From positions 1 to 16,961 of IMG/VR virus record IMGVR_UViG_3300029947_000044: 16,961 bases of DNA; one strand, 5' to 3'. Made by a program: the position numbers and the translations under genes. This DNA is from a virus. Under the pieces are notes generated by a model. The model made no database searches. It was not told the origin of the DNA and worked only from the letters and a program-made list of their open reading frames with translations. Positions 82 to 16,961 of this stretch are shown piece by piece; positions within the stretch are counted from its first letter, which is position 1, and every line of letters starts with the position of its first letter.

Positions 82-602
82 TGAAGAAGCCCCACGCGCA
101 TCCCAGGCCATGCCCGGACCGTTACATCGCGGCGGCGATGGAGAAGGCCACTCCGTCGGAAAAGCTCATGATCCGGCTCGCGGCCGAGTGCGGCCTTCGG
201 CGCGGAGAGATCGCCCGCGTGCACAGCGACGACGTGGTGGCCGACAGCGTAGGCCGGTCGCTTATAGTGCGCGGCAAAGGCGACAAGCAGCGCATCGTGC
301 CGCTGCCGGACGATCTGGCCGCCGTCGTGGCGGCCGCGGACGGCTATCTGTTCCCCGGCCGGTTCGGCGGGCATGCCGAGGAGTCCTACATCGGGGACCA
401 CATCAGCCATCTGCTGCCGGACGGGTACGCCGCGCACACGCTGCGCCACCGGTTCGCAACCACGGCCTACGCCGCCACACACGACCTGTTCGTGGTCGCG
501 GAACTGCTCGGCCATGAGTCCGTGGAGACCACGGAGCATTACGTGGCGATGCCGGATGGACGTCTGAGGGAGGCCACGGCGGCCGTCCGGCTCGTGGGCT
601 AA
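1..602 (+). CDS. int: Tyrosine recombinase / phage integrase, C-terminal catalytic part. It continues the ORF that starts at 16652; the whole protein is 276 aa.
   Basis: The frame starting at base 3 reads NTISSFFRWLRKSG... with no start codon and matches the frame at the right end. Catalytic signature is present: R (AECGLRRGEI), K (VRGKGDKQR), HxxR (AHTLRHRFAT), H (LLGHESVETT), Y (TEHYV). Stop TAA at 600-602. Confidence 0.9.
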   Translation, partial: NTISSFFRWLRKSGRRSDDPSLDVPRVKKPHAHPRPCPDRYIAAAMEKATPSEKLMIRLAAECGLRRGEIARVHSDDVVADSVGRSLIVRGKGDKQRIVPLPDDLAAVVAAADGYLFPGRFGGHAEESYIGDHISHLLPDGYAAHTLRHRFATTAYAATHDLFVVAELLGHESVETTEHYVAMPDGRLREATAAVRLVG

Positions 603-15705: not shown

Positions 15706-15898
15706 CATCCGGGGCCTCCGTAATCCGGCCCGACAACGCTTTGCCAAGCTCGTCGCGCAATGCTTCGGCCTCGGAACGATCCAGAGGAACAACGAGGTTC
15801 CCCACAGAACCGGCACGCGAGAACTCGACGAAGAACACATCAGGGCAATGCGCCAGACGGCTCACATGCACCGACACACGTTCCACGCCAGCCATCAC
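15698..15898 (-). CDS. Hypothetical early protein (about 65 aa)
   Basis: Stop-start coupled to the cro-like gene (GTGATG at 15893-15898). Its 3' end overlaps the convergent plus-strand gene by 8 nt. Confidence 0.55.
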   Translation of the reverse strand: MMAGVERVSVHVSRLAHCPDVFFVEFSRAGSVGNLVVPLDRSEAEALRDELGKALSGRITEAPDVS

Positions 15899-16131
15899 GC
15901 CACCTCCAAAGGCTCTCGGCCGAGCACGAAATCAGTGGAAACGTCGAAGAAATCGGCGATACGCGACACATCACGCAAGGTGAAATTCTTCAGGCCGCGA
16001 AGCTTGTTCGACAACGCTTGCTCACTCATTCCTACAGAATCTGCCAGCTCTCGCTGCGTGACGTGATTTGCACGCAGTCGGCCGCGGACCTGCTTGGCGA
16101 TCGTACGCTGCTCCTGAATTACTAAACTCAT
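15895..16131 (-). CDS. Cro-like Xre-family HTH regulator (78 aa)
   Basis: HTH_3 pattern (VTQRELADSVGMSEQALSNKLRG). It is divergent from the repressor gene and is the first gene of the long minus-strand operon. Confidence 0.8.
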   Translation of the reverse strand: MSLVIQEQRTIAKQVRGRLRANHVTQRELADSVGMSEQALSNKLRGLKNFTLRDVSRIADFFDVSTDFVLGREPLEVA

Positions 16132-16215
16132 AGTGAATTATTTAAGCACATGGAAACCGTTGAGTGATAACTTAGGCGTGTCGCACAAACTAAACCAATG
16201 GTTTATAATTGCGGT
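16132..16215. promoter_or_regulatory. Divergent switch region with back-to-back, apparently leaderless promoters and a palindromic operator candidate
   Basis: TATAAT at 16204-16209 ends 7 nt before the A of ATG 16216. On the minus strand a TAAATAAT box (16137-16144) ends 6 nt before ATG 16131. A perfect 15-nt palindrome TAAACCAaTGGTTTA (16191-16205) overlaps the plus-strand -10 box. AGTGA(A/T)(T/A)A occurs twice (16132, 16162). Confidence 0.5.
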
Positions 16216-16626
16216 ATGTCAACAACTATGATGCCGAAACCGCGACTGGACAAGCAGCAGATTGCGGTGGCAAATATCAAACTGCTGCTGGACGTTTCGC
16301 ATAGCAAAAAGAAGGATCTGGCCGAATACCTGGGCAAAGTACCTCAGTCGTTGTCGAAGATGCTTCAGAATAAGCAAACGTGGTTCTTTGAGGATATGTG
16401 CAACGCCGCCGATTTCTTCGGCGTTGGCCTTGAGACATTGGTGAGAACCGATTTAACGCCAATGAAGGCCGAGCAGATATTAAAAAACCGCCGTTCCGAT
16501 AATGGGAACGACGGTCAACTAGTAGCGGGGCATGGATTTGAACCATGGACCTCTGGGGACACCAGAGGTCCATGGTTCAAATCCATGGGACTTCTGAGCT
16601 TATCCAAGCTCATTTTAGCGGCCTGA
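16216..16626 (+). CDS. Xre-family HTH repressor, episomal (full-length) form, 136 aa, ending ...LSLSKLILAA
   Basis: HTH (KKDLAEYLGKVPQSLSKMLQNKQ) and a C-terminal helix motif ADFFGV shared with the cro-like protein (ADFFDV). Residues 106-123 are encoded by the tRNA-like palindrome. The track start at 16198 lies upstream of the -10 box, and the ORF from it reads across that box, so ATG 16216 is preferred. Confidence 0.75.
   Translation: MSTTMMPKPRLDKQQIAVANIKLLLDVSHSKKKDLAEYLGKVPQSLSKMLQNKQTWFFEDMCNAADFFGVGLETLVRTDLTPMKAEQILKNRRSDNGNDGQLVAGHGFEPWTSGDTRGPWFKSMGLLSLSKLILAA
16523..16556 (-). other. Candidate attP common core: tRNA gene 3' half (variable loop, T-arm, acceptor CCCCGCT, discriminator A) read on the minus strand
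   Basis: The minus strand reads CCAGAGGTC-CATGG-TTCAAAT-CCATG-CCCCGCT-A. Only this arm continues into a plausible acceptor stem with an A73 discriminator. It is adjacent to int. The anticodon is absent, so tRNA identity cannot be called. Confidence 0.6.
16531..16587. repeat. Perfect 26-bp inverted repeat with a 5-nt spacer (ggaca), built from a tRNA variable-loop + T-arm sequence
   Basis: catggatttgaaccatggacctctgg (16531-16556) is the exact reverse complement of ccagaggtccatggttcaaatccatg (16562-16587). Each arm contains a CATGG-TTCAAAT-CCATG T-arm. Confidence 0.95.
16595..16616 (+). terminator. Weak hairpin + T-tract (tGAGCTT-atcc-AAGCTCa-TTTT) between the attP palindrome and int; possible attenuator
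   Basis: A 7-bp stem with a 4-nt loop, followed by TTTT. It lies inside the last codons of the repressor ORF. Confidence 0.25.
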
Positions 16627-16651
16627 ACAATTCGGGGGTGCATGATGGATC

Positions 16652-16961
16652 ATGAGAAACAAGATCAGCGCACCGGTCCCATGGCGCAGAAGCATCGAAG
16701 GGTGGACTGACACCCTCAGGGCGGCCGGCCTATCAGCACAGACAATCAAAAGCCGTCGATACAAGATGGTCCATCTTGCGACGCTGTTCATGCCTTCGGG
16801 TCCCACGGACGTGACCACGGAGCAGATCGTGCAGGTGTTCGCAAGGCAGCAATGGAAACCGGAGACGCGCAAGGCGTACCGGAACACCATATCGTCGTTC
16901 TTCCGTTGGCTGCGCAAGAGCGGCAGGCGGTCGGACGATCCGAGCCTGGACGTGCCCAGGG
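16652..16961 (+). CDS. int: Tyrosine integrase, N-terminal (SAM-like/core-binding) part; continues at base 1 of the window
   Basis: ATG 16652 is the first start after an in-frame stop at 16643. It reads MRNKISAPVPWRRSIEGWTDTLRAAGLSAQTIKSRRYKMVHLATLF...QWKPETRKAYRNTISSFFRWL. There is no stop before the window end, and the frame matches 3..602. Confidence 0.88.
   Translation, partial: MRNKISAPVPWRRSIEGWTDTLRAAGLSAQTIKSRRYKMVHLATLFMPSGPTDVTTEQIVQVFARQQWKPETRKAYRNTISSFFRWLRKSGRRSDDPSLDVPR
16881..16961. repeat. Terminal overlap, right copy (identical to 1-81)
   Basis: Exact 81-nt identity with the window start. Confidence 0.95.

Follow-up and report, generated by a model that had tools for sequence, protein, structure and literature searches.

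A perfect palindrome at the attP of a Bifidobacteriaceae phage: an inverted second copy of the tRNA-Met core that keeps its complementarity to the first

The DNA analysed here, referred to as the window, is the whole of the 16,961-nt IMG/VR virus record IMGVR_UViG_3300029947_000044, and the subject of this study is a perfect palindrome in its phage attachment site (attP), which lies between the body of the repressor gene rep and the integrase gene int. The window begins and ends with the same 81 nt (1-81 = 16881-16961), giving a circular assembly of 16,880 unique bp with 61% GC, and it represents a complete, circular phage genome (16,880 bp) in the excised state. The phage is temperate, has a host among the Bifidobacteriaceae and carries an attP with the layout of integration-dependent immunity, in which rep, attP and int form an operon, the attP core is located within rep and the viral form of the repressor (Rep) ends in an -LAA tag, and in which an arm-less integrase (Int) performs both integration and excision, with the level of Int setting the direction (PMC9262239, PMC3694055, PMC4557955). 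Cassettes of this kind are known from the mycobacteriophages BPs, Brujita and Charlie and from the Gordonia cluster CW phages (reviewed in PMC9262239 and PMC3694055). In the window and in related bifidobacterial phages a second, inverted copy of the core stands beside the first, and it is shown below that what is maintained is the complementarity between the two arms, and not a peptide or a fixed recognition sequence.

The rep-attP-int locus and its palindrome

The features of the locus, in the coordinates of the window, are as follows.

16198-16626, plus strand: rep, encoding the viral-form immunity repressor of helix-turn-helix (HTH) type, 142 amino acids (aa), from the list of open reading frames (ORFs) and its translation
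16522-16557, minus strand (tRNA sense): common core of attP, an exact 36-bp match to nt 39-74 of the initiator tRNA-Met gene of the Bifidobacteriaceae
16531-16556, no strand assigned: left arm, antisense of tRNA nt 40-65, belonging to the true core
16550-16557: putative crossover (overlap) region, CCTCTGGG, at the inner end of the left arm and adjoining the spacer; it is antisense to tRNA nt 39-46
16557-16561: spacer GGACA, the loop of the hairpin; its first base, 16557, doubles as the last base of the tRNA-identical block
16562-16587: right arm, a copy of the core segment in inverted orientation, which has the tRNA sense on its plus strand; GGGACTT follows it, and no acceptor
16609-16623, plus strand: LILAA codons, an ssrA-like C-terminal tag of the viral-form Rep only, from the translation and the family-wide LAA/LTA endings
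16652-16961, plus strand: 5' part of int, beginning 25 nt after the rep stop and running over the circular junction
82-602, plus strand: 3' part of int, after the 81-nt terminal overlap; Int ends in ...AAVRLVG

The repeat finder returned 16531-16556 and 16562-16587 as 26-nt arms that are 100% complementary around the 5-nt spacer GGACA, 57 nt overall, just as an initial annotation of the window had described them; the only other inverted repeat within 16000-16961 is a single one of 17 nt (88%). By our own estimate, the chance expectation of a perfect 26-nt inverted repeat is roughly 1e-10 per ~1 kb, and the repeat is not a product of chance. Each arm corresponds to nt 40-65 of the tRNA and comprises the variable loop (AGGTC) and the T arm (CATGG-TTCAAAT-CCATG), which had been recognized from the outset, together with four bases of the anticodon stem, CCAG. 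The continuation into an acceptor end (CCCCGCT-A) is found on the minus-strand copy only, as had also been proposed, and this copy matches the real host tRNA-Met(CAT) gene. As single-stranded DNA the hairpin has a folding energy of -32.8 kcal/mol (z = -11.7), and the RNA fold of 16470-16670 is dominated by the palindrome hairpin (z = -8.7).

The rep ORF remains open through both arms and its product ends in ...SLSKLILAA*. Rep gave a weak match to a PHROG repressor (E = 6.5e-4), and the Rep C-termini of related viral forms all end in LAA or LTA; at the rep-proximal junctions the rep frame ends, as predicted, in ...GHGFEPWTSGL*, with a TGA stop that comes from the antisense anticodon loop. Int is a tyrosine integrase of 276 aa that falls within the BPs/Brujita clade, with 41% identity to the BPs-type and Gordonia GRU3 integrases and 32% identity to that of Brujita. 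In a scan of two of its close homologues (L029 and L003), both matched Pfam Phage_integrase (residues 121-260) and, weakly, SAM-like core-binding domains; judged from the domains of the homologues, the integrase is arm-less, with no room for an arm-binding domain. The C-termini of the integrases are hydrophobic (RLVG, RLAV, ILGA, LLSA) and none is LAA. With rep upstream, int downstream, a 36-bp block of tRNA identity between them and a circular genome, the original identification of attP stands, and the core block is located inside the 3' end of the rep ORF, upstream of int.

The 26-mer arm was found in one copy each in >120 IMG/VR contigs, and its commonest context in a table covering 120 viral contigs is a complete tRNA, CGCGGGG...CTGGGCTCATAACCCAGAGGTCCATGGTTCAAATCCATGCCCCGCTACCA, which is called tRNA-Met(CAT) by ARAGORN (on L210). 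This tRNA has three G-C pairs in the anticodon stem and a mismatched first pair, both of them characteristic of initiator tRNAs. The target gene is conserved in >120 species of Bifidobacterium, Gardnerella, Alloscardovia and their relatives, and prophage-free hosts carry the plain tRNA with no palindrome, so that the palindrome is not a mere copy of sequence flanking the bacterial attachment site (attB), as the initial annotation had considered it might be. Because the block of core identity covers the left arm, it is this arm that belongs to the attP core proper, and the right arm is a further copy in inverted orientation. In relatives the tRNA identity reaches 39 bp, which agrees with the 39-bp core reported for the tRNA-Met prophages of B. 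breve (PMC6109161). Two host loci deserve mention beside the target: in B. ruminantium (L158/L177) two copies of the target tRNA lie ~300 bp apart, and in B. pullorum subsp. gallinarum LMG 11586 (L139) a rep-side phage flank that lacks an intact rep ORF comes after the tRNA, and this locus is likely to be a prophage remnant.

Arm complementarity, crossover and neighbouring features

Relatives were recovered by arm-seeded and Int-seeded searches, and about 50 haplotypes, drawn from many datasets and with isolate-derived proviruses among them, had the same architecture; a palindrome-pattern scan of species-representative genomes gave no match. The pairing of the arms was analysed in 51 distinct haplotypes, with pairs counted on 17 distinct arm combinations. 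The arms are perfect over their full length in 22 of the 51 haplotypes and over fixed 26-nt arms in 25 of them. Changes on both sides include left CCtTGG with right CCaAGG, CCgTGG with CCaCGG and ATGttCC with GGaaCAT, as well as one inserted base in each arm of L332; four pairs have changed on both sides, and pair 15/43 occurs as A.T, T.A or G.C. The covariation score is 0.050 versus 0.017+-0.007, a value reached in 0/500 shuffles. One-sided states of the G.U type number zero, the compensation being strictly Watson-Crick.

The state of the left arm depends on what flanks it (Fisher p = 1.6e-6), as follows.

Rep flank (excised attP): left arm exact tRNA in 15/17 and variant in 2/17; palindrome perfect over 26 nt in 3/17 (the window, L332 and L328)
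Host or other non-rep flank (int-proximal junction): left arm exact tRNA in 6/34 and variant in 28/34; palindrome perfect in 23-24/34 (24/34 over 26 nt)

One of the two exceptions with a Rep flank, L328, actually has a host-like flank. In excised genomes the right arm usually has 1-3 mismatches, and the window is a rare excised genome with a perfect palindrome. Both ends of one isolate-derived provirus were recovered, with a normal tRNA at one end (L039) and a perfect 28-bp palindrome at the other (L338), the left arm of which has three non-tRNA bases; in a human-gut assembly (L130), perfect arms of 32 nt reach into the acceptor stem beside a flank that matches B. pseudolongum. The int-proximal junctions keep both arms beside several distinct host flanks, and the rep-proximal junctions have one arm followed by the true tRNA, in accordance with the initial proposal that the structure persists only at the int-proximal junction after integration. 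The impression that the window holds the sole perfect palindrome arose with seeding by the exact tRNA arm and was discarded, as Int-seeded sampling gave many perfect palindromes.

The complementarity is most likely to have been maintained by arm-to-arm copying at the DNA level, through quasipalindrome template switching or gene conversion, because the changes are strictly Watson-Crick, occur as multi-base patches, include an inserted pair and recur beside at least eight host flanks. At two int-proximal junctions (L283 and L314) the left arm has G at position 15 and the right arm has A at position 12, a mismatch that resembles a scar left when an A-type phage replaced an earlier prophage whose arm was of the C type. 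Avoidance of the restriction site CCATGG was considered as the cause of the hotspot at position 12 and was rejected, as this hexamer is not depleted in the window (12 observed versus 15.7 expected). CTCGAG is absent from the window (0 observed versus 5.2 expected under the Markov model), which suggests avoidance of a host restriction system of the XhoI type.

All the bifidobacterial integrases belong to a single clade, in which identities fall as low as 46%, and the arm is present, always on the int side, in every sampled lineage except a nested one termed Q; the comparison with relatives and prophage junctions that the initial annotation had proposed gave both arms in relatives other than Q and at int-proximal junctions. 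Relatives that use other tRNAs lack the second arm, and the early description of it as an unusual extra copy holds. The nominal spacers between 26-nt arms are 5, 6, 8, 12, 13 and 14 nt long, with unpaired stretches of 3-16 nt and unrelated sequences; the outer flanks of the arms are likewise unrelated, and the sequence past CCATG is not conserved. The right arm itself has a mean pairwise identity of 0.86 across subfamilies, versus 0.40-0.55 in the flanking rep and int coding sequence, and it is still 20-25/26 identical to the tRNA arm, although int is saturated at its four-fold degenerate sites (mean identity 0.43). A neutrality test of right-arm retention gave P = 5e-5 to 2.5e-3 in seven of eight lineages and 0.07 in the eighth (L038). 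The arm is translated in two frames, as RGP(W/R)FKSM with 5- and 14-nt spacers and as QR(S/N)(T/M)VQIH with 12-nt spacers; for this reason its conservation is at the nucleotide level, and a protein-coding constraint on it was rejected. Hairpins of -47 to -71 kcal/mol are formed in all arm-bearing lineages and in none of the Q lineage, and the folding energy has no consistent strand preference.

The Q type (L014, L030, L032, L077, L117 and L317-L323) has the same Int clade and tRNA core with no inverted copy, the core being followed by GGCTAAACCACCTTGGATATATCC. It accounts for 7/46 Int-seeded loci, one of them from an isolate, and its reconstructed viral Rep would end in ...WTSGAKPPWIYPDYWALVD (...WALVD) with no LAA-like tag, so that the lineage may have left integration-dependent control. 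The sequence CCAACGCCTCAGG is the 3' end of a second rep allele. In one locus with a 12-nt spacer (L055:4493-4541), an extra T in the spacer gives a TAA stop directly after the core; the viral Rep of this locus would be left with no tagged extension at all, and the contig ends there.

We infer that Int crosses over in the 7-8 bp beside the spacer, CCAGAGG, corresponding to tRNA nt 40-46 (16550-16557), because the positions there are invariant in 51/51 haplotypes, the block of tRNA identity ends there and the variants at positions 1-19 of the left arm are linked to the 3' flank, whether rep or host, and not to the side of the spacer and right arm. Three composite junctions have a variant nt 51 beside a host or rep flank and another element on its other side, and a scan for a full tRNA gene with variant nt 51 found composite junctions only. 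Crossover in the T loop, a first guess from the dyad of the T arm, is disfavoured, as the 3' flank and the variants at nt 47-58 segregate together; a crossover in the middle of the palindrome was rejected, as the spacer has no identity to attB; and crossover at the second arm was rejected, as it was used in 0/179 junctions. The segregation pattern amounts to a testable crossover map (CCAGAGG, nt 40-46) for an integrase family that is of interest for genome engineering. In two sequences (L291 and L303) the spacer, right arm and int are kept and the left arm is replaced by unrelated DNA up to ...GGGGATA, which could reflect a deletion or rearrangement ending at the edge of the putative crossover region. 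At many rep-proximal junctions (for example L010, L020, L107, L353 and L115:8240-8330), an arm of a second, unrelated element stands in place of the 5' half of the tRNA; this element, in which the match to the tRNA begins in the anticodon loop (GGGATCATAAC...), has a perfect palindrome of 18 bp, GTCGTCAACGTTGACGAC. The arrangement points to tandem occupancy of one tRNA gene by two kinds of element.

Three further features surround the attachment site.

15895-16131, minus strand: divergent Cro-like HTH gene, with matches to PHROG transcriptional regulators down to 3e-11
16486-16516, minus strand: intrinsic terminator, a 12-bp stem followed by TTTTTT (terminator scan), inside the rep coding sequence
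16596-16611, plus strand: small second hairpin, GAGCTT-ATCC-AAGCTC followed by ATTTT, within the tag-coding region (RNA fold)

With rep and int adjacent and co-oriented and the Cro-like gene divergent from them, the int-rep-cro cassette is complete. The minus-strand terminator sits 6 nt past the 3' side of the tRNA-derived core and is presumably supplied by the phage to stop transcription of the rebuilt tRNA gene as well as lytic read-through; counterpart hairpins occupy the same place in Barebow, GRU3 and SallySpecial. The small second hairpin is kept only within the subfamily with 5-nt spacers and does not qualify as a terminator. A dyad, CATGAT-GG-ATCATG, at 16641-16654 overlaps both the int start codon and a short upstream ORF initiated by ATG at 16642, and other subfamilies have different small dyads where the window has this one. 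The remainder of the genome comprises a structural operon on the minus strand, and its DNA similarity to cultured phages is faint.

Function and origin of the second arm

The function that we prefer, tentatively and with somewhat less than even confidence, is that the palindrome acts as a long, integration-sensitive hairpin in transcripts that cross attP. Integration would take the right arm and the codons of the LAA tag out of the rep transcript, and the full hairpin would remain directly 5' of int, outside a translated ORF, where ribosomes translating rep would not melt it. The hairpin at the int-proximal junction could then insulate the directionless integrase from read-through; int must be silent in lysogens because Int alone sets the direction of recombination (PMC3694055). 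Such a hairpin would place a nucleic-acid layer over the known proteolytic switch, with a logic analogous to that of lambda sib retroregulation. On integration the left arm of the phage would join the working tRNA and would hence be kept identical to it, and it is because the left arm rebuilds the tRNA in this way that the excised left arm would stay tRNA-identical; the displaced 3' fragment of the host tRNA at the int-proximal junction would become an orphan and would be overwritten to match the phage arm. This hairpin reading is favoured because the right arm is conserved in the long term while its variants are not erased, and the arm, the hairpin and a recognizable tag are all absent together in the Q lineage.

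Several observations weigh against a regulatory hairpin. The step from structure to function is one that we purely infer, and we hold it with corresponding reserve, below even confidence. A role for the hairpin in the rep-int mRNA, as suggested in the initial annotation, is conceivable, but the strictly Watson-Crick compensation argues in the first place for copying of the DNA. The zero count of G.U intermediates is predicted by DNA copying and needs no selection at the RNA level, and the one-sided substitutions in excised forms do not keep wobble pairing on the mRNA strand. The terminator scan found no U-tract after the hairpin, which is thus not an intrinsic terminator. BPs, Brujita, Wizard, Barebow, SallySpecial, GMA5 and Rahul have the same immunity with no second arm, and the Q lineage is common without it (7/46 Int-seeded loci, as above); any function would be dispensable, because the cultured relatives and the Q lineage manage without the arm. 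A mismatch in the middle of the stem is tolerated in most excised genomes, and the position of the crossover, being derived from segregation patterns and not from mapping, is itself provisional.

It is only slightly less likely that the palindrome has no function and perpetuates itself: an ancestral inverted duplication of the core would have been trapped in an unconstrained linker between the body of Rep and the LAA tag, where out-of-frame deletions would be lethal to lytic growth, and the resulting quasipalindrome would keep its likeness to the tRNA only by repeated templated correction from arm to arm, with the left arm being reset to the tRNA by selection on the phage and by the host copy at each integration. 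Strictly Watson-Crick compensation, multi-base patches, an inserted pair and the lack of wobble intermediates all fit such a history, as do the rapid short-term change of the arms (integrases 94-97% identical differ at three or four arm positions), the variation in arm extent from 21 to 32 nt and the sporadic appearance of perfect states in separate lineages (the window, L130 and L332). The arm has been lost in the Q lineage without obvious harm and is absent from relatives in other genera, and core duplications are known in this group of phages, GRU3 having a perfect 77-nt tandem copy. However, right-arm variants (A or C at position 12, AA at positions 8-9) persist across deep lineages, which indicates that correction toward the tRNA is not efficient; the other right-arm positions are conserved over saturated divergence, which suggests purifying selection; and the loss of the arm in Q coincides with the loss of a recognizable tag, which hints that the arm belongs to a regulatory module.

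The inverted copy could instead be an accessory or second integrase-binding site, at which the arm-less Int would bind a pseudo-core and so place extra protomers at attP and at the int-proximal junction. For an Int without an arm-binding domain any extra site must resemble the core, the right arm holds a full copy of the putative strong half-site and of the overlap sequence, and the copy is on the int side in every member. An accessory site is nevertheless improbable. Variation in the arm is greatest in the putative half-site (arm positions 8-19), and the ends of the arm are invariant; one pair is A.T, T.A or G.C among near-identical integrases, and the orphan arm changes toward the phage arm and does not stay tRNA-like. 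The distance between the core copies shifts with the spacer (3-16 nt), with no conservation beyond CCATG, the Q lineage shares both Int clade and core but has no arm, BPs, Brujita, Wizard, Barebow and SallySpecial have no significant extra core copy, and none of the 179 junctions had used the second arm for crossover. The combination expected of an accessory site, namely a conserved sequence, a conserved spacing and presence wherever the Int clade uses attB, was not found, and the extended symmetric core for integrase binding that was first suggested is disfavoured by the variable half-site, the free spacing, the Q lineage and the three-way pair.

An assembly artefact, which the initial annotation had raised, is very unlikely. 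A fold-back chimera might have made the second arm, or bubble-popping might have made an imperfect palindrome look perfect; the window is known from an assembly, its exact sequence is absent from the viral and metagenome collections searched, and its closest excised relatives have A or C at right-arm position 12. However, the sequences beyond the arms are unique and coherent, with rep open to the LAA tag, int next and no continuation as a reverse complement; the architecture recurs in those about 50 haplotypes, the isolate-derived provirus L338/L039 among them, and perfect palindromes are common at junctions; and the 81-nt assembly overlap exceeds the 57-nt palindrome, so that single k-mers should have spanned it. 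The T at 16573, the base that makes the palindrome of the window perfect, is the sole feature that depends on one assembly.

That the palindrome is a tRNA-like gene, a Rep operator or an intrinsic terminator is scarcely credible: ARAGORN called an 89-nt tRNA-Gln(ttg) at 16522-16610 on the minus strand, but its 'anticodon arm' is the reverse complement (the mirror image) of the T arm, its acceptor has two mismatches, Rfam gave no tRNA match even at E <= 1 and ARAGORN was silent on L130 despite a longer perfect palindrome, so that the call was rejected as an artefact; the dyad lies near rep, as an operator might, but CCAGAGGTCCATGG with <=3 mismatches occurs only in the two arms and in one chance-level match and is absent from the rep-cro region; and the hairpin tail, GGGACUUCUG, has no U-tract and was not flagged by the scan, which found neither an intrinsic terminator nor a promoter on the plus strand, the real terminator being on the other strand (16516-16486).

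Known systems and implications

Integration-dependent immunity cassettes were reportedly described by Broussard et al. in 2013. As in BPs, Brujita, Charlie and the cluster CW phages, the window has rep, attP and int with a divergent cro, a tRNA core in the 3' end of rep, an -LAA tag that is removed by integration, a small arm-less Int (32-42% identical) and a phage-supplied hairpin 3' of the tRNA fragment. In contrast to the window, BPs, Brujita, Wizard, Barebow, SallySpecial, GMA5 and Rahul have one antisense core in rep with no adjacent inverted copy, and the idea that the second arm is a generic feature of the BPs/Brujita Int clade was rejected, as the arm is absent at the rep-int junctions of eight cultured relatives. 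In GRU3 (L125:668-821, NC_030935) the region of the attP core is present as a perfect 77-nt tandem direct duplication, inside or after rep, which is absent from GMA5 and Rahul and looks like a recent duplication of the attachment site.

The nearest described relatives are the ~18-kb tRNA-Met prophages Bb423phi2, 689b-1, Bl-1 and Bbr-1 of B. breve and B. longum (Mavrich et al. 2018, PMC6109161), for which integration-dependent immunity was proposed and an ssrA-like tag on the viral Rep was predicted (PMC6109161). The window shares with them the host family, the tRNA-Met target, the 39-bp common core, a genome of ~17-18 kb and a tagged viral Rep (PMC6109161), and it is almost certainly a member of this group. 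The terms 'palindrom', 'hairpin' and 'stem-loop' do not occur in the text of that paper, in which 'inverted repeat' is used once, for IS30 (PMC6109161); as judged by the text of the paper, the covariation of the arms and the rewriting of the orphan fragment are undescribed there (PMC6109161). Integration-dependent immunity at the bifidobacterial tRNA-Met is therefore an already known system, and it is the second arm that is new; an inverted, co-varying second copy of the core, together with rewriting of an orphan tRNA fragment, appears to be undescribed.

Parallels to the palindrome can be drawn with four other systems. In lambda, sib is an RNase III site, shown by experiment, that lies beyond attP, downstream of int, and retroregulates int. 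The palindrome resembles sib in that a long hairpin close to att has its connection with a lysogeny gene altered by integration, with expression differing between phage and prophage as a consequence, but differs in that the core itself is one arm, the hairpin lies upstream of int inside rep and any processing would be hypothetical. Quasipalindrome template switching (Ripley; the Lovett laboratory) perfects imperfect inverted repeats by using one arm as the template for the other; the resulting changes are strictly complementary, can be multi-base, can include insertions and deletions, and are mostly known from mutational hotspots in laboratory genes. The complementary multi-base patches and the inserted pair agree with such events, which here, unlike the known cases, would take place repeatedly in natural populations and would affect an orphan piece of tRNA at a prophage junction, where a footprint is what is seen. 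Simple tyrosine recombinases may have accessory elements, such as the third FRT element and DR1/DR2 of the integron attI, and Lunt and Hatfull reportedly described P1/P2 sites in the Brujita attP in 2016. Like these elements, the right arm is an extra core-like sequence beside the crossover site of an arm-less recombinase; whereas they have a conserved sequence and fixed spacing, the phage copy co-varies with its partner and its spacing is free. Finally, the attP of CTX-phi, a single-stranded DNA phage, consists of inverted dif-like sites that fold, the hairpin being the substrate of XerCD. The two have in common a pair of inverted copies of a recombinase site that are able to fold into a hairpin, but the phage studied here is a tailed double-stranded DNA phage with ordinary junctions of the attL and attR types.

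In conclusion, this study describes a second, inverted copy of the attP core in an abundant human-gut clade of Bifidobacterium phages, which adds it, with maintained complementarity, to what is regarded as the simplest phage switch: one tRNA core in rep, a proteolytic tag and an arm-less, directionless integrase. It is conceivable, although doubtful, that the attP core also serves as one of the arms of a regulatory hairpin, a structure that recombination rewires and that chromosomal replication perfects through rewriting of the orphan fragment. If this is true, retroregulation would be built into the attachment site itself, and excision would return an initiator-tRNA gene with an edited T-stem. 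If the second arm has no function, these junctions would provide a clean natural record, from dozens of independent cases, of palindrome-perfecting template switching. If it is functional, it would constitute a new layer of nucleic-acid control that is switched by integration, and would account for the silence of a directionless integrase in lysogens.

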